A DNA stretch of 32,000 nt from Parasphingorhabdus sp. DH2-15 (GTDB lineage: Bacteria; Pseudomonadota; Alphaproteobacteria; Sphingomonadales; Sphingomonadaceae). Both the position numbers and the translations under genes were made by a program. The notes beneath the pieces were generated by a model, which did not search any database, was not told the DNA's origin, and worked only from the letters and a program-made list of their open reading frames with translations. How positions within the stretch are numbered: the first letter of the stretch is position 1; each line of letters begins with the position of its first letter. The stretch spans positions 872,020 through 904,019 of the forward strand of contig NZ_CP196351.1 in assembly GCF_051668705.1 (NCBI RefSeq), in the 5' to 3' direction. Shown piece after piece: positions 6,104-31,277 of the stretch.

Positions 6104-7363
6104 ATGGACTTTTTTCAATTAAAAGGCGGCATCATCCATGCCGAAAACCTGCCATTGACCGTATTGGCAGAGACATATGGAACGCCCTGCTATATCTATT
6201 CGGCCGGAACGCTGCGCCGCCATGCGCGTGTGTTTCGTGAAGGCTTATCTGCTTTACCAAAAGTGCATTGCGCGTTTGCCGTAAAGGCCAACCCGAATCT
6301 GGCGATTTTGCGTATCTTGGCAAAAGAAGGCTATGGCGCAGATGTTGTGTCTGGTGGTGAGTTGGCGCGCGCATTGGCCGCAGGCATGGCCGCAGAAGAT
6401 ATTGTTTTTTCCGGCGTTGGTAAAACGGCTGCAGAAATGCGTGATGGCCTTAAGGCTGATATTGGCCAGTTTAATATTGAGTCGATTGAAGAGGGCCATG
6501 AACTGGCGGCCATAGCTGCAGAAATGGGCAAGTGCCCTGCGGTTACGCTGCGCATCAATCCGGATGTTGATGCCGCGACCCACGCCAAAATCTCCACTGG
6601 CAAGGCAGAGAATAAATTTGGCGTCGCCATTGACCATGCCGCGGATATTTTCGCTGAACTGGCGGGGCACTCCTCTCTGAATATGCGCGGTGTTGCGGTG
6701 CATATTGGCAGTCAATTGCTCTCACTCAATCCGTTAAAGATGGCCTTTGAACGGGTCGGTAATCTGGTGCAGCAATTGCGTGAACGCGGCTTGACCATCA
6801 GCCATGTTGACCTAGGCGGCGGCATCGGTGTGCCGTATAAAGACGGTGAAGTGCCGCCAAGTCCGGCAGAATATGGCGCTATGGTGGCAGATGTAACCCG
6901 CAATTGGGATGTGACGTTGATGTTTGAGCCTGGCCGAGTGATTGCCGGTAATGCTGGTGTTATGCTGACCCGTGTCATTCGTGTGAAACAAGGCCATGGC
7001 GACCCGTTCGTGGTGGTCGATGGCGCTATGAATGATTTGGCGCGTCCGGCACTATATGATGCCTATCATGATTTTGTCCCGGTACAGCCTGATGGCACCA
7101 ATATGATGGCCAATATTGTCGGTCCTATTTGCGAAACCGGGGACACATTTGCACGCAATAGGCCCATAGGCGCGGTCAAGGCTGGTGATCTGGCAATTTT
7201 CCGCACCGCAGGGGCATATGGGGCCACAATGGCCAGCACCTATAATAGCCGCGCCTTGGTGCCGGAAATATTGGTAGATGGCGATCAACATGCTTTGGTC
7301 GCGGACCGGATTGACCCCGCTACAATTATGGCAGCGGAGCGCTTGCCGGATTGGCTGGATTAA
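6104..7363 (+). CDS. lysA: Diaminopimelate decarboxylase
   Basis: 419 aa. PLP-Lys context is CAFAVKANPN. Other family motifs: HVDLGGGIGV, MFEPGRVIAG, GPICETGDTF. Confidence 0.93.
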   Translation: MDFFQLKGGIIHAENLPLTVLAETYGTPCYIYSAGTLRRHARVFREGLSALPKVHCAFAVKANPNLAILRILAKEGYGADVVSGGELARALAAGMAAEDIVFSGVGKTAAEMRDGLKADIGQFNIESIEEGHELAAIAAEMGKCPAVTLRINPDVDAATHAKISTGKAENKFGVAIDHAADIFAELAGHSSLNMRGVAVHIGSQLLSLNPLKMAFERVGNLVQQLRERGLTISHVDLGGGIGVPYKDGEVPPSPAEYGAMVADVTRNWDVTLMFEPGRVIAGNAGVMLTRVIRVKQGHGDPFVVVDGAMNDLARPALYDAYHDFVPVQPDGTNMMANIVGPICETGDTFARNRPIGAVKAGDLAIFRTAGAYGATMASTYNSRALVPEILVDGDQHALVADRIDPATIMAAERLPDWLD

Positions 7364-15440: not shown

Positions 15441-18275
15441 TTAATGCGCATCCCCCCAACTTGGGCCTGTACCAATATCTATTTCGAGCGGCACGGTGAG
15501 TTTGACCGCAGGCTCTGCCGCATTGGCCATCACCTGACGAATAACAGCTGATGCTGCTTCAACATCGCTTTTGGGCAGTTCAAACACCAATTCATCATGC
15601 ACTTGCAGGAGCATGCGCACCTTTTCTAACCCTGCTTTGGCAAGGGCTTGCGGCATGCGGGTCATGGCCCGCTTAATGATGTCTGCGCTGGTGCCTTGAA
15701 TAGGGGCGTTGATCGCCGCTCTCTCACTGCCCTGACGTTCGGTCTGATTTTTGGCATTTATGCGCGGAAAGTGCGTTTTGCGGCCAAATAATGTTTCGGT
15801 GTAAAGCCGTTCCTTCGCGCTTTGCAAAGTATCAGAGATATAATGGTTGATGCCCGGAAAACGCTCAAAATAACGACTGATCATATCTTGCGCTTCATCG
15901 GCGGAAACTTCCAACCGACCCGCCAATCCCCAACGGGATATGCCATAAAGGATAGCGAAGTTGATAGTTTTGGCGCGGCCCCGTGTGTCGCGATTGACCT
16001 CGCCAAACAGCTCTTGTGCTGTGCGATTATGGATATCTTCGCCATCAGCAAAGGCCTGACGGAGCGTATCGACATCGGCCATATGTGCGGCCAATCGCAG
16101 TTCAATCTGGCTATAATCGGCAGCCAGTATCACATTGCCGGGTTCCGCAACAAAAGCAAACCGGATCTGACGGCCCATTTCTGTGCGAATGGGGATGTTT
16201 TGCAGATTGGGGTCATTGGATGACAACCGCCCAGTCTGTGCGCCGACCAGGCTATAGCTGGTGTGAACACGTCCGGTTTTCGGATTGATATCATTTTGCA
16301 AAGCATCGGTATAAGTGGATTTCAATTTCGACATTTGCCGCCAGTCGAGCACTTTGCGGGCAATATCGTGACCATCCTGCGCCAGCCGTTCGAGCACAGT
16401 GACATCCGTGGAATATTGGCCGGATTTGCCCTTTTTGCCGCCTTTCAGGCCGAGCTTTCCAAACAGAACCTCACCCAATTGTTTCGGGCTGCCAATGGTA
16501 AAAGGCTCCCCGGCAATGGCGTGGATTTCTTTCTCGCGAGTGGCCATGATCTCGGCAAATTCTGCCGAAAGCCCCGCTAGCCGTTCGCGGTCAACTTTAA
16601 TGCCCTCACGCTCCATTTGTGCAAGAGTGGAGAGAACAGGGCGGTCAACCAGTTCATAGACCTTTGTGCCGCCCTCCGCACTAAGCCGCGGTTTCAAAAT
16701 CTGCCATAGGCGCAGCGTCACATCAGCATCTTCCGCCGCATAGCGCGTAGCCTGATCCAGCGGGACTTGACCAAATCCAATCTGGCTTTTGCCGCTGCCC
16801 GTGACGGATTTATAGCTGATGCAGTCATGATCCAAATGCTCTTTGGCTAGCGCATCCATGCCATGACCACCATGGCCGCCCATGGCTTGGCCTGCATCTA
16901 GTGCAAAGCTCATCACCATTGTGTCATCGACAGGAGCTATCAGAATATCGTGCTGCGCCATGATATTAATATCATATTTGATGTTCTGGCCGATTTTCAG
17001 CACAGCATCATCTTCCAACAACGGTTTGAGCAGCGTCAAAGCGTCTTGCATGGCGATTTGTTGAGGCTTTTCATCCAACAGGTCAGTACCACCATGCGCC
17101 AAGGGCACATAACAGGCTTTGCCCGGCGCGGTGGCCAGGCTGAAACCTACCAATTCGGCGCGCATAGGGTCTAGTGAAGTGGTTTCTGTGTCAAAAGCTA
17201 CACTGCCAATAGCGCGCGCTTCATCCACCCATTTTTGCAAGGTTTCTTCATCGGTAATGCAAACATATGCATCTGGGTCGATCGCTGGCTGTTCGGGCGC
17301 GCGCGGGGCATGTGTGCCGGGACCATTATTGTTTTCACCAGATGTATTGGAGCCAGTGCTTTCTGCTCGACCAGATGTTTCTGGCGCATCGGCACCCAAT
17401 TTGCGCAGCAAGCTGGTAAACCCATGCAATGACAGAAATTCAGCCAAAGGCTCGTGCGGAATGTCTTGTAGTTTGAAATCGTCCAGCGCGACGGGCAATG
17501 GGCAATCATCTTTGAGCGTTACCAAAACGCGTGACAGACGTGCATCGTCCGTAAATTCGATAAGGTTCTCGCGCATCTTAGACTTTTTCATGCCCTGAGC
17601 AGCGGCAAGGACGCCATCCAAATCGCCATGTTCCAAGAGCAACTTTGTCGCAGTTTTGGGGCCGATACCTTTAACCCCGGGGATGTTATCCGCGCTATCG
17701 CCCATAAGAGCCAGCATATCGCCGACCAGTTCAGGGCCAACGCCGAACTTTTCAATAACTTCCTGTTTGCCGACACGCACATTCTTCATCGTGTCCAACA
17801 TGTCGATACGGCTATCATCAACAGGTTCAATCAATTGCATCAGGTCTTTGTCAGAGCTGACAATGGTTACCTTCCAACCTTGCTCGACCGCAGCCACAGC
17901 ATAGCTGGCGATCATATCATCCGCTTCGACATTTTCCTCTTCAATAACGGGTAAGGAAAATGCGCGGGTGGCATCGCGTATAAGCGGGAATTGTGGAACC
18001 AGATCATCGGGCGGCGGCGGCCTGTTGGCTTTATATTGATCATAAAGATCGTTGCGAAAGCTCTTTGATGATTTATCGAGAATGACCGCCATATGTGTCG
18101 GGCCATTGGCCTTGTGCAGGTCATCGGCCAATTTCCACAACATGGTTGTATAACCATAAACCGCGCCAACGGGCGTGCCCTCTGGATTGGTTAAAGGCGG
18201 TAACCGGTGATAGGCACGAAAAATATATGCCGAGGCATCGACAAGATAGAGATGATTCTGTTCAGACATGTTCAT
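15441..18275 (-). CDS. polA: DNA polymerase I
   Basis: 944 aa. 5'-nuclease N-terminus; 3'-5' exonuclease motif FDTETTSLD; polymerase motifs ADYSQIELRLAAH, RGRAKTINFAILYG and LLQVHDELVFE. Confidence 0.97.
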   Translation of the reverse strand: MNMSEQNHLYLVDASAYIFRAYHRLPPLTNPEGTPVGAVYGYTTMLWKLADDLHKANGPTHMAVILDKSSKSFRNDLYDQYKANRPPPPDDLVPQFPLIRDATRAFSLPVIEEENVEADDMIASYAVAAVEQGWKVTIVSSDKDLMQLIEPVDDSRIDMLDTMKNVRVGKQEVIEKFGVGPELVGDMLALMGDSADNIPGVKGIGPKTATKLLLEHGDLDGVLAAAQGMKKSKMRENLIEFTDDARLSRVLVTLKDDCPLPVALDDFKLQDIPHEPLAEFLSLHGFTSLLRKLGADAPETSGRAESTGSNTSGENNNGPGTHAPRAPEQPAIDPDAYVCITDEETLQKWVDEARAIGSVAFDTETTSLDPMRAELVGFSLATAPGKACYVPLAHGGTDLLDEKPQQIAMQDALTLLKPLLEDDAVLKIGQNIKYDINIMAQHDILIAPVDDTMVMSFALDAGQAMGGHGGHGMDALAKEHLDHDCISYKSVTGSGKSQIGFGQVPLDQATRYAAEDADVTLRLWQILKPRLSAEGGTKVYELVDRPVLSTLAQMEREGIKVDRERLAGLSAEFAEIMATREKEIHAIAGEPFTIGSPKQLGEVLFGKLGLKGGKKGKSGQYSTDVTVLERLAQDGHDIARKVLDWRQMSKLKSTYTDALQNDINPKTGRVHTSYSLVGAQTGRLSSNDPNLQNIPIRTEMGRQIRFAFVAEPGNVILAADYSQIELRLAAHMADVDTLRQAFADGEDIHNRTAQELFGEVNRDTRGRAKTINFAILYGISRWGLAGRLEVSADEAQDMISRYFERFPGINHYISDTLQSAKERLYTETLFGRKTHFPRINAKNQTERQGSERAAINAPIQGTSADIIKRAMTRMPQALAKAGLEKVRMLLQVHDELVFELPKSDVEAASAVIRQVMANAAEPAVKLTVPLEIDIGTGPSWGDAH

Positions 18276-22299: not shown

Positions 22300-24591
22300 T
22301 TGAACCAATTTGAGAACATCATGCTAGAGAAACCGATATCGAAAGACAAAGCATCTCCTGTTGATCAGGAATTTGGTAGCTTTTTTAATCGCATGACAGC
22401 ACGTATCAACGCGCAAGGTCAACAAATTGATGAAAACAAACAATGCATGCAAACGGATCAAGCTTTGTTGCTGCTGCAAAGTTATGAAGAGAGCCGGCAG
22501 GGTTGGTTTTGGTCTACCGATGCAGAAGGTAATATTACCTATTTGACCCAATATATTGCTGCAATGCTGGATGTACCAGTATCTGACTTGCTCGGTACGC
22601 CGTTTGTAAATCTGTTTGCAAAATCGCTTGACCATGAAGCAACGCAGAGATCGCTGCCTTTTGTTCTGACAAAGAAAACCAAGTTCGATGAATTGCGTCT
22701 CAAAATGCATGTCGGTGAAGATGTGCGCTGGTGGTCAGTGTCTGGTCAGCCGCAATACTCCAAATTGGGACATTTCACAGGTTTTCGCGGTAATGGTTCT
22801 GATATAACGGCGCAACTTCGTGCATCGCAAGATACCGAGCAATTGGCGCGTTATGATTCACTAACCGGCTTAGCTAACCGCGCGAATATGCAAGAGAAGC
22901 TGGAAAAAACACTTAAGGCCTTTCAGCCGCAGAATCGGCCCTGTGCTGTTGTTCTGCTTGATCTTGACCGGTTCAAACAGGTCAATGATACATTGGGTCA
23001 CCCCGCGGGCGATGCATTGCTTAAACAGGTTGCTCAGCGACTGAAAAAAGCTGTCGGGCAAAGGGGCGAGGCAGGTCGTCTTGGCGGCGATGAATTTCAG
23101 CTTATCATTCCGGATTGTGAAGATCGGGGTGATCTGGGAGAGCTGGCCGAAAGGATTATTTCCAGCATTTCCCAGCCTTACTCCATCGATGGAAGTCGCT
23201 GTATTATTGGTGCTTCGATTGGCGTGGCGATTAGCCCGTTTGATGGAGAAACAACCGAAGATATAATTCGCAATGCCGATCTGGCGCTTTACGCTGCAAA
23301 AGCAGGCGGACGCGGACGGTTTTGTTTCTATTCGAGTGACCTGCATCAATCTGCTGAAGATCGGCGTCAGCTGGAAGAAGATTTGCGTGACGCTTTGGCC
23401 AATGATCAATTGTCACTATTCTATCAGCCTATCGTCGATGGCAACACGAATATTGTTAAAGGGTTTGAAGCGCTTATGCGCTGGAACCACCCTGATAGAG
23501 GGCCTATTTCCCCAGCGGTTTTCATCCCGATTGCGGAGGAGGCCAATCTTATAAATGCGCTTGGTGAATGGGCAATCCATAAAGCATGTACGGAAGCCTC
23601 TGAATGGGGTGGTAAAGTACGGGTAGCAGTGAATGTATCGCCGGTTCAATTTGCTAATGACAGATTGCCGAACATCGTCGCAACAGCATTGGCCAATACT
23701 GGCCTGGCGCCAGATCGGCTGGAGCTGGAAATTACTGAAGGCGTATTTCTGGCTGAATATGATGAAAATGGCGAAATGTTCGAGCAATTGAAAAATCTTG
23801 GCGTTCGCTTGTCTCTTGACGATTTTGGCACCGGCTATTCGTCCATGAGCTATTTGCAAAATGCGCCATTTGATAAGATCAAAATTGATCAAAGCTTTGT
23901 TCGCGGTGCAACTTTAAAAGGGTCACGCAATAGCGCTATTATCGCTGCAATTGTCGCGTTGGCTGAGGCTCTGGGAATGGAAACCACAGCCGAAGGTATA
24001 GAGACTCTCGATGAGCTGGAGATGATCCGAGATCTAAGGGTCAGCCATATTCAAGGTTATGTTTACAGCCCGGCTGTGGCCAATGAGAAATTGCTGCAGA
24101 ATCTTGCCGATGGTGAGTGGATTATTGAGCCTGTTGGGCCTGCGCATCATCGTGAGGATCGTACCTCCATGTTCCGTAAGGTTTTCGCGATTCATCATAA
24201 CCACCGCTATCAAGTGGTCATCCGCAATCTTTCCGCAACGGGTGCGTTGATTGAAGGCTTGCTTGATGTTCCGGTAGGGACTCACTTTGTAATCGATTTT
24301 GGGGATGGCCAATTGGCCGTATCAACTGTTCGGCGTTCAATGGGCGATAAACAGGGTATCGAGTTTGAAGAAAGATTGGTTGATGATGGCAGTGGTGGGC
24401 TGTGTACTGCGCGTCGTGTTTCCCGTTATTTGATTGCAGCGGTCAGTGCTCAAGAGCAACAATCGCAACAATCGCAACAATCGCAAGTTGGCGGGTGGCA
24501 AGTTCAACATGTCATGAATCCGCAAGAAGGTATGATACCTGTATTTAATAGCAGTATCGAAATGTCCCTCAAAAAACGCACTGCCAATTGA
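22300..24591 (+). CDS. PAS-GGDEF-EAL-PilZ multidomain c-di-GMP signalling protein
   Basis: PAS: GWFWSTDAEGNITYLT...WWSVSGQP. GGDEF: SLTGLANR, RLGGDEFQLII. EAL: FEALMRW, VNVSP, ELEITE, LDDFGTGYSS, KIDQSF, AEGIE, QGY. C-terminal PilZ-like: VVIRNLSATGALIEG...GIEFE. The start is TTG at 22300 or ATG at 22321. Confidence 0.88.
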   Translation: MNQFENIMLEKPISKDKASPVDQEFGSFFNRMTARINAQGQQIDENKQCMQTDQALLLLQSYEESRQGWFWSTDAEGNITYLTQYIAAMLDVPVSDLLGTPFVNLFAKSLDHEATQRSLPFVLTKKTKFDELRLKMHVGEDVRWWSVSGQPQYSKLGHFTGFRGNGSDITAQLRASQDTEQLARYDSLTGLANRANMQEKLEKTLKAFQPQNRPCAVVLLDLDRFKQVNDTLGHPAGDALLKQVAQRLKKAVGQRGEAGRLGGDEFQLIIPDCEDRGDLGELAERIISSISQPYSIDGSRCIIGASIGVAISPFDGETTEDIIRNADLALYAAKAGGRGRFCFYSSDLHQSAEDRRQLEEDLRDALANDQLSLFYQPIVDGNTNIVKGFEALMRWNHPDRGPISPAVFIPIAEEANLINALGEWAIHKACTEASEWGGKVRVAVNVSPVQFANDRLPNIVATALANTGLAPDRLELEITEGVFLAEYDENGEMFEQLKNLGVRLSLDDFGTGYSSMSYLQNAPFDKIKIDQSFVRGATLKGSRNSAIIAAIVALAEALGMETTAEGIETLDELEMIRDLRVSHIQGYVYSPAVANEKLLQNLADGEWIIEPVGPAHHREDRTSMFRKVFAIHHNHRYQVVIRNLSATGALIEGLLDVPVGTHFVIDFGDGQLAVSTVRRSMGDKQGIEFEERLVDDGSGGLCTARRVSRYLIAAVSAQEQQSQQSQQSQVGGWQVQHVMNPQEGMIPVFNSSIEMSLKKRTAN
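24457..24483 (+). repeat. Perfect 3 x 9-bp tandem repeat CAACAATCG, encoding (QQS)3
   Basis: Read directly from the sequence. It lies in the C-terminal tail of ORF 22300..24591, after the PilZ-like domain. Confidence 0.9.
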
Positions 24592-26890: not shown

Positions 26891-26917
26891 TGTAACCCAA
26901 AGCTCTTATCTGGCGAA
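26891..26917 (+). promoter_or_regulatory. ECF sigmaF-type promoter TGTAACC-N16-CGAA upstream of the DUF2282 precursor gene
   Basis: tGTAACC (26891-26897), exactly 16 nt, then CGAA (26914-26917), about 80 nt upstream of the ATG at 26996. It matches the GTAACC-N16-CGAA motif I recall for Caulobacter sigmaF targets. No other copy with correct spacing was found on either strand of the window. Confidence 0.6.
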
Positions 26918-26926
26918 ATACGAGGT

Positions 26927-26974
26927 GGAACGTGATATTGGACATTCTGTCCGGCACGTCCTTTTGAACTTTTT
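26927..26974 (+). promoter_or_regulatory. Terminator-like compound hairpin in the leader of the precursor gene
   Basis: GGAaCGTG-atatt-GGACA-ttc-TGTCC-gg-CACGTCC, followed by TTTTgaacTTTTT. It begins only about 10 nt after the CGAA -10 element and ends about 20 nt before the ATG. Confidence 0.4.
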
Positions 26975-26995: not shown

Positions 26996-27280
26996 ATGGC
27001 TAATACGCTTGTAAAAGTTACTGCAGCTGCCGCTGCTCTGGCTGCTGCCGCCTCTCTGGCTTCTGCTCCTGCCGCTGCGCAATCAAAAGAAAAATGCTAT
27101 GGCATTTCTCTCGCTGGTAAAAATGACTGTGCTGCTGGTCCAGGTACAAGCTGTGCCGGTACATCAACCGTTGATTACCAAGGCAATGCTTGGAAATATG
27201 TTGCTAAAGGCAGCTGCGTAAAACAAGGCGGTTCTTTGAAAGCGCGTAAAGGCAACAAAAAGCCAGTCGCAAGCAAATAA
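26996..27280 (+). CDS. DUF2282-family secreted four-Cys peptide, bufferin-type RiPP precursor (BufA-like)
   Basis: 94 aa. Sec-type signal [29 protein letters not shown], then [51 protein letters not shown] (family signature KEKCYG..AGKNDCA...CAG....G.C), then the Lys-rich tail [13 protein letters not shown]. Confidence 0.85.
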
Positions 27281-27301: not shown

Positions 27302-28273
27302 ATGACCTCAACTGCTTATCCTGACCACGCCCAATATGGCGAAAAGTCTGCAAACTATATTGGCCAGAATATTGGTAATCGATTGAATGCATTGCCTTTA
27401 TCGGTTGGTATAGGCTTAAAGCCAGTACATTATCATGATGTTCTGGCTAGTGTGGACGATAAGATAGGCGTCATGGCGCCGGGCTGGGTAGAGGTTCATC
27501 CGCAAAATTATTTCGGTGATGGTGGTCCGCCACATAATTGGCTGACTGCCATCGCCGAACATTTTCCTCTCAGTCTTCATAGTGTTGGCCTGTCAATGGG
27601 CTCTGCCGACGGCGTAAGCCGCTATGATCTGGAGAAGATAGCTGCTTTGTGTGCGCGCTATAACCCGGCAAGTGTTTCTGATCATCTGAGCTGGAGCGGT
27701 CAAACAAGTGATCGTTATCCCGACCTTCTACCTATCCCTTATACTCAGGCGTCATTAGATCATTTTGCACGCCAGATTGATATTGTGCAGGAAAGACTGG
27801 GTCGTACTATCTTGGTGGAGAACCCGTCGCGTTATCTGGGTTATAAAGATGATGTGATGGACGAAATTGATTTCATCCATAAAATATGTGCGGCGACGGG
27901 CTGCGGCCTATTGTTCGATATAAATAATGTTGAGGTCAGTAGCACCAATATGTCTGTTATGGACCCAGAGCATCAAATGCCCGACCCAAGAGATTATATT
28001 GACGCGATCGACCCTGCAATTGTTGGGGAAATCCATTTGGCTGGTCATGCGCGCGAAGACCATGACGATGGGCCTTTGCTCATCGACGATCATGGCAGTG
28101 CAGTAAATGATCTGTGCTGGTCTTTATATGAGCGTTTTATCGCCAGATCCGGACCAAAACCAACATTGATTGAGTGGGACACGGATATACCCGATTATGC
28201 GGTTTTGATGGAGCAGGTCGCAATTGCGCGCTTGATCATGGCCAAAGCACTGCCGCATGAAGATGCTGCATAA
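27302..28273 (+). CDS. DUF692 / MNIO (multinuclear non-heme iron oxidative) enzyme, BufB/MbnB-like
   Basis: 323 aa. SVGIGLKPVHYHDVL, WVEVHPQNYFGDGG, LSLHSVGLSMGS, VSDHLSW, ILVENPSRYL, FDINNVEVS, EIHLAGH, TLIEWD: the TIM-barrel DUF692 pattern. A possible alternative start is TTG at 27383. Confidence 0.85.
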   Translation: MTSTAYPDHAQYGEKSANYIGQNIGNRLNALPLSVGIGLKPVHYHDVLASVDDKIGVMAPGWVEVHPQNYFGDGGPPHNWLTAIAEHFPLSLHSVGLSMGSADGVSRYDLEKIAALCARYNPASVSDHLSWSGQTSDRYPDLLPIPYTQASLDHFARQIDIVQERLGRTILVENPSRYLGYKDDVMDEIDFIHKICAATGCGLLFDINNVEVSSTNMSVMDPEHQMPDPRDYIDAIDPAIVGEIHLAGHAREDHDDGPLLIDDHGSAVNDLCWSLYERFIARSGPKPTLIEWDTDIPDYAVLMEQVAIARLIMAKALPHEDAA

Positions 28274-28285
28274 AGCTGATATATA

Positions 28286-29056
28286 GTGACAAAACCCGAA
28301 AGAGATAATGGTGCCGATCTCTTGGCCAGTGGCCAATCCGGCTTTATGGATGCCTTGCAAAAAGGGCCTGACCATTTGCCATCCAATTTGTTCAGTGGTT
28401 CGCGCTATCGTGCCTTTATTGGCGTAAAGGCCCATGCCAATACTATATCCCATGCACGGCTGGTCGCGCTTGAGGATACATATCCCAGACTGCGGGAGCG
28501 CTTGGGCGATGAGGCATTTAATCAACTGAGCCGCGATTATCTGGAATATGGCGATGTTCGCCAAAATGATATGAATGGTTTGGGGCGAGACTTTGCCGAA
28601 TTTATCGATGCGCAAGGTGTAGATAAAGCCAGCAGTGATTTGGCACATATCGAATGGGCCTGGCTAAAAAGCTATCATGCAGCCGATGCAGAAGCCCTTA
28701 ATATGCAGGATATTGCCGCTCTGGATGAAGCAGCATTGATGGAACTGCCCATCGCTTTGCATCCATCTGTACAGCATATCATGCTGCACGCACCATTGGC
28801 GCCGGAATTGGGGTTGGAAGTGCCCGCAGGTGATCATCTGGCTGCCATTGCGATTGTGCGTCAACAAAATGACGTTTTGCTCTTTCCGCAAACCACTGTG
28901 CAAAAAGATATTTTTATTTGCTGCAAAAATTCGGTACTGATGCGTAACCTTTTGGAATCCGCTGTCGAAACTATAGGGGAGACGCACGCTGTAGAACATA
29001 TTTTTGCTCTTGTTGGGGCAGGGTTTCTAAAGCGTTCGAACAAAAAACAAGACTAA
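28286..29056 (+). CDS. DUF2063-family protein, partner subunit of the MNIO enzyme (BufC-like)
   Basis: 256 aa, GTG start 12 nt after the DUF692 stop. FMDALQKG...YRAFIGVKAHANTISHARLVALEDTYPRLRERLGDEAFNQLSRDYL is the typical DUF2063 N-domain. Confidence 0.8.
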   Translation: MTKPERDNGADLLASGQSGFMDALQKGPDHLPSNLFSGSRYRAFIGVKAHANTISHARLVALEDTYPRLRERLGDEAFNQLSRDYLEYGDVRQNDMNGLGRDFAEFIDAQGVDKASSDLAHIEWAWLKSYHAADAEALNMQDIAALDEAALMELPIALHPSVQHIMLHAPLAPELGLEVPAGDHLAAIAIVRQQNDVLLFPQTTVQKDIFICCKNSVLMRNLLESAVETIGETHAVEHIFALVGAGFLKRSNKKQD

Positions 29057-29134
29057 CGATTGCAGCGGCTGATCAGACCATGGCTTCGACTATTTGGGCC
29101 TGCTGTTGGCCAGATTGTAAAATGGGACAATATA

Positions 29135-29590
29135 ATGAAAAATCTAATTTCAAAAATCGAAACTCTGACCGCAAACCCGTTTTTGGTGAGTGTCTTTTTG
29201 CTTCTAACACGGATTACACTAGGTGGCATCTTCTGGCGCTCGGCTACAACCCGCTTCGAAGAGGGTAGCTGGACCACATTGAATGAGAACGCAATTTACC
29301 AGTTTTCCGATGTTCCTTTTAATCAGGTGCCCGTGATTAACGGCGAATTTGGCGCGTATTTCACGACATTCAGTGAATTGGCGGTATCCATTTTATTGTT
29401 CCTTGGCTTCGCGACACGCCTGAGCGCTCTGGCAACCATTGGTATGATGAGTGTAATTCAGATTTTTGTCTTCCCGACTATCCCGCACCTTTGGGGCGTA
29501 GTCTTTATGTGGGCAATCATGGCGATTGTCCTTGTTGCGAAAGGTGGTGGAATGTTCTCAATCGACCGTCTGTTCACCAAAGCAGGATAA
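29135..29590 (+). CDS. DoxX-family inner-membrane protein
   Basis: MKNLISKIETLTANPFLVSVFLLLTRITLGGIFWRSA followed by four hydrophobic helices. The track ORF starts at TTG 29060, but I prefer the ATG at 29135. Confidence 0.75.
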   Translation: MKNLISKIETLTANPFLVSVFLLLTRITLGGIFWRSATTRFEEGSWTTLNENAIYQFSDVPFNQVPVINGEFGAYFTTFSELAVSILLFLGFATRLSALATIGMMSVIQIFVFPTIPHLWGVVFMWAIMAIVLVAKGGGMFSIDRLFTKAG

Positions 29591-29615
29591 TTCCGCTAAC
29601 TGCTTGATTGCAAAG

Positions 29616-29648
29616 TCCGGTTGGTCATCGTGACCCGCCGGATTTTTG
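29616..29648 (+). terminator. Rho-independent terminator after the DoxX gene
   Basis: TCCGG-tt-GGTCA-tcg-TGACC-cg-CCGGA followed by TTTTT. Confidence 0.75.
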
Positions 29649-29765
29649 CTAGAGAAGGAAGTGAATTTTGTTTCTTGCCAATTGTTTCGGGATGATGTGT
29701 AAGCGATAATGTTTTAAAAGGCTGCACATCTTGCAGTAAATAATGGGCATCGGATCACCCCTCTT

Positions 29766-30293
29766 ATGGCAGCAAATGAAGATAGCCTCAGGCATCTTAT
29801 GACTAAGGCGCAACAGGGTGACAAACGCTCTTATGCACTGCTGTTAGAGGAATGCCAAAAATGGTTGAAGCGCTATTATGCGCGCAAAATCCCCCCTGCC
29901 GCACTTGATGATCTGGTGCAAGAGACCTTGATTTCCGTCCATAGAAAATTGTCCAGCTATGACCCTTCAAGGCCTTTCTTGCCTTGGCTGGCGGCTATTG
30001 GCCGCTATCGCTGGATCGATCATTTGCGCAAAGTGTATCGCGCTGACGAAACCGGTTTAGAAGAAGAACTGTTGGCAGACCCTGCTGAAGAGCCGGTTTC
30101 TGCTAAAGTGAGTCTCGACAAATTATTGGATATGCTGCCGGAAAAACAGGCATCTGTTATACGCATGGTGAAAATCCAGGGCCTTTCCATTACGGAGGCA
30201 GCGGCAATGACCGGCCAATCGGAATCTCTTGTGAAGGTGAATGTGCATAGGGGCATAAAAAAAATGAATGTTTTGGTAGAAAATTCTGAGTAA
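29766..30293 (+). CDS. ECF (group IV) RNA polymerase sigma factor, SigF-like
   Basis: 175 aa. Region 2: LDDLVQETLISVHRKLSSYDPSRPFLPWLAAIGRYRWIDHLRK. Region 4: LPEKQASVIRMVKIQGLSITEAAAMTGQSESLVKVNVHRGIKKM. Confidence 0.88.
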   Translation: MAANEDSLRHLMTKAQQGDKRSYALLLEECQKWLKRYYARKIPPAALDDLVQETLISVHRKLSSYDPSRPFLPWLAAIGRYRWIDHLRKVYRADETGLEEELLADPAEEPVSAKVSLDKLLDMLPEKQASVIRMVKIQGLSITEAAAMTGQSESLVKVNVHRGIKKMNVLVENSE

Positions 30294-30441
30294 GTGTAAC
30301 TTTATCAGAATCTGCACGAATATCAGATATAGAATATCCTCTGATTGTGTTTGCAAGATTGGGAAGATGAAAGTTTGAAGCAGCTATTAGGCACTAGATA
30401 TGGCCTTAAAGCCTTGAAAATATGGAATTGAGTAAACGAAT

Positions 30442-31134
30442 ATGACAACATCTCAGGGAAATGGCGGTACCAAACAGCCATTTAGCATTGATGATCTCGT
30501 TGCTGATCTGACACCTGTGAATCCGGTGCGGATCCGTGATGGTATCGCTATGGCACTTGCGTTGACACTGTTTATTAGTGTGGCAATTTCCTTCTATCTC
30601 GGTATCCGTAGCGGCCTTGCTGCAGGAAATTTTGAGACGATTTTTGTCGCACGTACATTCGCGCTTCTGGCGCTTGGCGGTGTTAGCGCTTATGCGGCTA
30701 TGTCGCTTGCTCGTCCCGCTGTAGATACAAATCTGCGAAAAGTTGAAACCATGGCCTCACGCACGGTTTTGGGTATTTCTTCGGTTTTTCCAGTTCTTGC
30801 TTTGATTTATTTCTTTGCAGATATGCCGCGCAGCAGCGTTGAGGCCGTAGCAATTTTTGACCCATCAATTGGCCGTGAATGCCTTACTTATAGTGGCCTT
30901 TCTGCTCTTGCTATTGGTAGTGCCATAACTGTCTGGTTGCGTCGCGGTGCGGTTGTTTCACCTGAGCGTGCTGGTTGGTTGACTGGTCTTGCAGCTGGTG
31001 GCTTTGGTGCAGCAGCCTATAGCTTATTCTGCCCAATGGACAGCGTGGTTTATATCGGCACATGGTTCACAATGGCCGTTGCTATGGCCGCGGTTGCCGG
31101 ACGTTTGGCGGTTCCATCGCTGCTACGCTGGTAA
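30442..31134 (+). CDS. DUF1109 / NrsF-family six-TM anti-sigma factor
   Basis: 230 aa. N-terminus IDDLVADLTPVNPVR, then six hydrophobic helices. Two Cys (GRECLTY, LFCPMD) fall in predicted periplasm-facing loops. Confidence 0.8.
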   Translation: MTTSQGNGGTKQPFSIDDLVADLTPVNPVRIRDGIAMALALTLFISVAISFYLGIRSGLAAGNFETIFVARTFALLALGGVSAYAAMSLARPAVDTNLRKVETMASRTVLGISSVFPVLALIYFFADMPRSSVEAVAIFDPSIGRECLTYSGLSALAIGSAITVWLRRGAVVSPERAGWLTGLAAGGFGAAAYSLFCPMDSVVYIGTWFTMAVAMAAVAGRLAVPSLLRW

Positions 31135-31167: not shown

Positions 31168-31193
31168 AAAGGGGCTGCTATGCCCCTTTTTTC
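31168..31193 (+). terminator. Rho-independent terminator after the anti-sigma gene
   Basis: AAAGGGGC-tgctat-GCCCCTTT followed by TTTC. Confidence 0.8.
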
Positions 31194-31277
31194 TTGCCTA
31201 ACTGTGCAATATATCCCTTATGCGTTATGAAAAGCCTGATCTAGAGAGTGATTGGGGCAATAGGGGTTATTATTAAG

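Follow-up and report, generated by a model that had tools for sequence, protein, structure and literature searches.

The bufferin operon of Parasphingorhabdus sp. DH2-15 is best explained, with a probability of roughly 90%, as being driven by a promoter that is read by the ECF16 sigma factor SigF, two further SigF-type sites being present in the same locus. This promoter, P1, lies on the plus strand at 26891-26917 of the window, the whole stretch of 32,000 nucleotides analyzed here (contig NZ_CP196351.1, positions 872,020 to 904,019), and is composed of a -35 box TGTAACC (26891-26897), a spacer of 16 nt (26898-26913), and a -10 box CGAA (26914-26917). An earlier note on this DNA had placed the motif about 80 nt before the ATG at 26996, and it was found there, the end of CGAA being 78 nt from this start codon of the co-directional gene bufA. 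The gene encoding the predicted reader of the promoter, sigF, is found 2.8 kb downstream of P1.

All six genes of the locus are encoded on the plus strand, co-directional with P1 and with the two additional sites (P2 and P3). The first four are bufA (26996-27280), encoding a DUF2282 bufferin precursor (94 aa; Sec signal; 4 Cys in the core; PF10048, E=1e-23), bufB (27302-28273), encoding an MNIO enzyme (DUF692 / MbnB_TglH_ChrH; PF05114, E=6e-88), bufC (28286-29056), encoding a DUF2063 partner protein (PF09836, E=8e-11), and doxX, or bufD (29135-29590; PF07681). They are followed by sigF (29766-30293), whose product is an ECF sigma factor matching Pfam Sigma70_r2 and r4_2, and by nrsF (30442-31134), encoding a DUF1109 anti-sigma factor with two Cys (PF06532, E=9e-37). 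An intrinsic terminator on the same strand (31168-31199, -16.9 kcal/mol, then a U-run) closes the locus, and groES-groEL are located upstream of it on the opposite strand. The start of doxX was taken as the ATG at 29135; the TTG at 29060 was rejected, as the alignment with relatives begins at residue 1 of the protein translated from the ATG. With matches to all four Pfam families (DUF2282, DUF692, DUF2063, and DoxX) in the Caulobacter order, the cluster corresponds to a buf1-type bufferin cluster as defined at the sequence level. The genome carries a second MNIO cluster (G000:C1:2144500-2150500, L055) with genes for a ferritin-like protein, a 235-aa ORF, DUF692, and DUF2063, in which neither a DUF2282 precursor nor a SigF motif with up to 1 mismatch was found; this lack of a motif suggests that the cluster is probably not SigF-controlled.

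An exact search of both strands of the window for GTAACC-N16-CGAA gave two matches, at 26892-26917 (P1) and 28944-28969 (P2), each on the plus strand, and no exact match was obtained in any of 100 dinucleotide-preserving shuffles of the window. When one mismatch was allowed, the sole extra match was an unrelated site at 22861, and the relaxed pattern GTAAC-N16-CGAA, one base shorter, had a single window match at 30296-30320 (P3). The earlier note had called P1 unique in the window and had stated that no other GTAACC had CGAA at the correct spacing. P2 contradicts both statements: it is a second exact copy on the same strand, and the GTAACC at 28944 is followed by CGAA at the right distance. 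Ten GTAACC sites are present in the window; the inspection by eye behind these statements had covered them in part, leaving out those at 6893 and 28944 and giving 18190 for the site at 18200.

The Caulobacter sigmaF consensus given in the earlier note, on the other hand, is accurate, as the published sigmaF/ECF16 consensus and the mapped promoters agree with it. GTAACC-N16-CGAA is the sigmaF-binding sequence that Kohler et al. (2012) defined with 5'RACE before CC3254-57, an operon with the composition DUF2282-DUF692-DUF2063-DoxX (PMC3511200). Leprevost et al. (2024) gave this operon the name buf1ABCD and showed that its product, a copper-binding peptide, is made under the control of SigF (PMC11626156). 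Li et al. (2021) quote the ECF16 consensus as (T/C)GTAAC-N17-CGAA, and two mapped Brucella promoters have the form TGTAACCTTTTT...GCGAA (PMC8315932). In Sinorhizobium, a similar motif serves the ECF16 sigma factor RpoE7 in the activation of a DUF692/DUF2063 operon (Lang et al. 2018; PMC6180224). The consensus (T/C)GTAAC-N17-CGAA equals GTAACC-N16-CGAA, and the boxes of P1 agree with it exactly. Every defining feature of ECF16 promoters that is open to an in silico test was found in P1. A point against it is that its spacer does not have a T-run after GTAACC, unlike that of P2 and those of the Brucella ECF16 promoters. On the sequence evidence, P1 is very probably a SigF/ECF16-dependent promoter of the bufferin precursor operon.

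Evidence that the motif is functional comes from the genome (one contig, 2.86 Mb, 50.8% G+C). The genome-wide scan that the earlier note had proposed yielded 14 exact GTAACC-N16-CGAA sites, with an excess at spacing 16 only and with most of the sites between genes. The same boxes at spacings 8-15 and 17-29 (21 controls) gave 0-7 sites each, with a mean of ~2, and ~2.4 sites are expected at any one spacing from the box frequencies. Eleven of the 14 N16 sites fall outside ATG-started ORFs of at least 120 aa, which cover 89% of the genome, whereas 39 of the 45 control-spacing sites fall inside such ORFs (Fisher p=1e-5). A reversed-pattern control of this search gave as many matches as the motif itself but was dismissed as uninformative, CCAATG being six times commoner than GTAACC and the reversed pattern showing no spacing preference, and the spacing controls were used in its place.

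The genome contains a single NrsF gene, the nrsF of this locus, and five genes of the sigma-70 family, including sigF. The two largest are read as RpoD and RpoH from their open-frame sizes (710 and 333 aa), the third is FliA-like and adjoins a FlgM-like gene, and the fourth encodes an EcfG-like ECF sigma factor with PhyR-type similarity. SigF and the EcfG-like protein are the only ECF sigmas and, as the remaining sigma factors are RpoD, RpoH, and the FliA-like and EcfG-like proteins, SigF alone qualifies as a plausible reader of the motif. The EcfG consensus is GGAAC-N16-17-CGTT. It is thus very improbable that P1 is read by EcfG, whose consensus differs in both boxes, or by an unrecognised ECF, or that it is a chance match. 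Chance has in its favor that only ten bases are specified, so that a few sites are expected per spacing in a 2.9-Mb genome, and nothing specific besides; it is opposed by the empty window shuffles, by the spacing-specific excess and intergenic bias of the genomic sites, and by the positional conservation of P1 with a free spacer in 73 related loci described below.

Among the products of the genes behind the other sites are a periplasmic MsrA, two small secreted proteins, a MarR regulator, two hydrolases, a radical-SAM/SPASM enzyme, a pyridine-nucleotide disulfide oxidoreductase, and an AMP-ligase. A candidate SigF/NrsF stress regulon of ~11-12 promoters could in this way be obtained without experiment. 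The MsrA site (G000:C1:2750091-2751131, L005 492-1532) is an exact SigF-type motif before a small membrane-protein ORF and the signal-peptide-bearing MsrA, and likely marks a second unit of the regulon, of a type familiar from ECF16 sigmas, among whose targets Msr genes recur (PMC8315932). Elsewhere (G000:C1:2625084-2625723, L006), two exact SigF-type motifs are found on the minus strand, 614 nt apart, each followed after ~50 nt by a small ORF (161 aa with a signal peptide, and 117 aa) for which no Pfam match was obtained. Across 40 genomes, the motif count had a mean of ~9 in the 16 genomes with NrsF and ~3 in the 24 without; this tracking of NrsF presence is only suggestive, base composition and relatedness being confounding factors.

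The position of P1 is conserved in relatives. Among the 40 relatives, DUF692 loci from genomes with NrsF have the motif (up to 1 mismatch) upstream of the precursor gene, and at the same threshold no motif was found before the precursor in the DUF692 loci of seven genomes without NrsF. A scan of species genomes provided 80 Sphingomonadales loci, mainly from Parasphingorhabdus, Sphingorhabdus, Blastomonas, and Erythrobacteraceae, which places the organism of the window among the Sphingomonadaceae. Almost all of these loci have the gene order bufA-bufB-bufC-doxX-sigF-nrsF. Upstream of bufA, P1 was found in 73/79 of them and is exact in 65, with 59-96 nt (median 71) between the end of CGAA and the precursor start in the loci that bear it. 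The information profile of the 73 unique P1 sequences is high only at TGTAACC and CGAA, with the spacer and the upstream flank free, which is the footprint expected of an ECF promoter.

Variations on this arrangement were also observed. In another member of the genus (G003, L039 978-1983), there are three tandem DUF2282 precursor-like genes, with a SigF motif between the second and the third. In two genera of the same family, the cluster is split and carries back-to-back SigF motifs (L044 3678-3702 and L045 3854-3880), bufA-doxX-sigF-nrsF being driven one way and bufB-bufC the other.

The distance from the -10 box of an ECF promoter to the transcription start is usually 6-10 nt, which predicts a start for P1 at 26923-26927 on the plus strand and implies a leader of ~70 nt. 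A stem-loop (26930-26959, plus strand) is folded within the first 40 nt of the predicted transcript and is followed by U-runs. Hairpin and U-runs together could attenuate the output of P1, a point against the P1 model. Relatives have a hairpin at the equivalent place of the leader, with unrelated sequence and with U-runs that are not always present; a role as a stabilising 5' stem-loop or as a regulatory element is more likely for it than one as a simple terminator.

The second exact motif, P2 (28944-28969, plus strand), is embedded in bufC at its 3' end; the distance to the bufC stop codon is 88 nt and that to the doxX ATG 165 nt. P2 was found in 76/77 related loci and is exact in 74. To test whether protein constraint could be the cause of this conservation, codon usage at 66 unique sites was compared with the background. 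The boxes are laid over the codons as xGT-AAC-CTT and xxC-GAA. Asn is encoded by AAC in 66/66 sites (background, 47%), the Leu that follows by CTT in 63/66 (12% of background Leu codons), and Glu by GAA in 66/66 (background, 61%). GT is supplied by GGT, TGT, or CGT, so that the residue varies between G, C, and R and the GT stays constant; before Glu, the codon stands for I, L, V, G, T, D, or C, with C as its third base in every case. Third-position invariance also reaches a local peak at P2 in the within-genus alignment. Protein constraint was therefore ruled out as the reason for the conservation, residues changing while the box bases stay, and the codon evidence indicates that selection maintains P2 as a DNA sequence.

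In most relatives doxX, sigF, and nrsF are separated by 3-46 nt or overlap, the layout of an autoregulated operon behind P2: the doxX-sigF gap is <60 nt in 57/74 loci, and sigF and nrsF overlap or nearly abut in 63/74. No motif was found between doxX and sigF in any of the related loci, and none with up to 1 mismatch was found inside sigF, either in 74 Sphingomonadales sigF genes or in the window. As the genes are tightly packed behind P2 with no motif in between, no promoter other than P2 is visible for doxX-sigF-nrsF in most of the Sphingomonadales relatives, which points to autoregulation.

These observations bear on the earlier note's view that the sigma gene is not autoregulated. That argument rested on the uniqueness of P1 and is left without support, P2 having been missed upstream of and co-directional with doxX-sigF-nrsF. 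The accompanying claim that 29649-29765 has no motif is correct at up to 1 mismatch, but P2 and P3 on either side of this interval had escaped notice. The view itself may hold in part for another reason: a hairpin after doxX and a separate SigF-type site before nrsF make weak or no positive autoregulation possible in this lineage.

The window differs from most relatives around sigF, with a doxX-sigF gap of 175 nt and a sigF-nrsF gap of 148 nt; gaps enlarged in this way were found only in this genus and in the Blastomonas clade. Downstream of doxX lies a terminator-like hairpin (29612-29648, plus strand; -20.7 kcal/mol, z=-4.5) that is flanked by an A-tract on its 5' side and by a U-tract on its 3' side. 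The closest relative has retained this hairpin despite base changes, and other members of the genus have different G+C-rich hairpins at the equivalent place. On the 3' side of the hairpin, a CTTGCC/CTTGAC box is conserved across the genus; no consistent -10 box for it was found in the genus alignment, and a consensus scan of 29649-29765 found no convincing sigma-70 promoter for sigF. In Blastomonas loci a conserved TTGCYG-N17-TAGSTT box, read by eye, is located directly before sigF. In this lineage sigF may have its own promoter. The doxX-sigF gap of some Parasphingorhabdus (L062, L066, L068, and L081) contains a long palindromic insertion (124-145 nt, -61 to -70 kcal/mol) that looks like a repetitive extragenic palindrome.

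The third site, P3 (GTAACT-N15-CGAA, 30296-30320, plus strand), lies two bases downstream of the sigF stop codon, with a distance of 121 nt to the nrsF ATG. The same position holds an exact GTAACC-N16-CGAA in two members of the genus (G002 and G003) and GTAACT-N16-CGAA in a third (G004), and GTAACT-N15-CGAA is shared by the window and its two nearest relatives (G005 and G001), the boxes being retained and the spacers having diverged. Overall, a motif is found in the sigF-nrsF gap of 10/11 loci in which this gap is at least 60 nt, against 1/63 other loci; in relatives with such a gap, the majority of these motifs are exact at N16. P3 is probably a SigF-dependent promoter, at least a candidate one, for the anti-sigma gene alone; whether it is active in this genome is uncertain, given its single mismatch and its spacer shortened by one base. 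Loci of the P3 type occur in two clades, this genus and Blastomonas, that emerge from a polytomy of the tree, and both a single origin and two origins are possible.

Two architectures can be proposed for the window, and they differ in the amount of transcription presumed to pass the doxX hairpin. In the first, P1 and P2 transcripts would read through it into sigF-nrsF, giving positive autoregulation as in most relatives, with P3 having a minor role. The close packing of the three genes across the order, with P2 as the only upstream motif, favors this arrangement, as does the lack of a convincing sigma-70 promoter before sigF. However, the hairpin has the full anatomy of an intrinsic terminator and is kept in the closest relative, and the genus-conserved box past it hints at a separate promoter, so that read-through is a tentative reading, at two chances in five or thereabouts. 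In the second, P1 and P2 transcripts would end after doxX, sigF would be expressed independently of SigF, and SigF would induce only nrsF via P3, resulting in negative feedback without positive autoregulation. The same hairpin argues for this arrangement, together with the enlarged gaps restricted to this genus and the Blastomonas clade, the near confinement of the sigF-nrsF motif to loci with such gaps, and the Blastomonas box before sigF. Against it stand the short spacer of the window P3 and the T at position 6 of its box, as well as the fact that no clear sigma-70 promoter can be named before sigF in the window; we consider it possible, at just under even odds. For the lineage as a whole, a scenario that we hold at slightly below an even chance is that the doxX-sigF-nrsF promoter of Sphingomonadales is embedded in bufC under DNA selection and that this genus and Blastomonas have been rewired by a terminator, an independent sigF promoter, and a new nrsF promoter, negative feedback replacing positive autoregulation.

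The closest known system is sigmaF-NrsF with CC3254-CC3257 of Caulobacter crescentus/vibrioides, which resembles the window in motif, target operon, gene order, and sigma and anti-sigma families. The leaders are also similar, the CC3254 start having been mapped by 5'RACE 61 nt before the start codon (PMC3511200), compared with the ~70 nt predicted here. However, sigF-nrsF of Caulobacter stands apart as a unit beside the operon, and a sigmaF-like promoter of its own immediately precedes sigF, whereas in the window sigF-nrsF is co-directional and downstream of doxX, the second promoter is inside bufC, and the third site precedes nrsF alone. Sinorhizobium meliloti RpoE7-EcfR7 likewise combines an ECF16 sigma factor with an adjacent DUF692/DUF2063 operon (SMb20530-SMb20527) and a GTAAC...CGAA promoter (PMC6180224), but the arrangement is divergent, the motif lies directly before rpoE7, and no embedded promoter was reported. 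The TGTAACCTTTTT...GCGAA promoters of Brucella melitensis BcrS-AbcS (ECF16) have a GTAACCTTTT extension that P2 of the window shares (PMC8315932); there, however, a methionine-rich peptide and MsrPQ are targeted in place of bufferins, and bcrS, which is transcribed from a promoter of its own, was demonstrated to be autoregulated. The wiring of the sigma factor to bufferins is thus already published for Caulobacter and Sinorhizobium, and P1 is nothing new in principle. P2, embedded and strongly constrained, and P3, lineage-specific, are modest additions; neither is described in PMC3511200, PMC11626156, PMC6180224, or PMC8315932.

Following the Caulobacter model, stress by copper, other metals, or oxidants would cause the membrane anti-sigma factor NrsF to release SigF. 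SigF-RNA polymerase would then engage P1 and initiate at about 26923-26927, producing a bufA-bufB-bufC(-doxX) transcript. P2 would act as a second entry point for doxX and, in most Sphingomonadales, as the promoter of doxX-sigF-nrsF, making the system autoregulatory, and through P3 SigF probably induces the inhibitor that acts on it. The bufferin operon of this Sphingomonadaceae bacterium would in this way be assigned to the SigF/NrsF stress regulon. More generally, ECF promoters can occupy coding sequence under measurable DNA-level selection, and the sigma/anti-sigma feedback loop may be rewired between related genera, which could be of some use for studies of ECF signalling and for the engineering of orthogonal ECF circuits.
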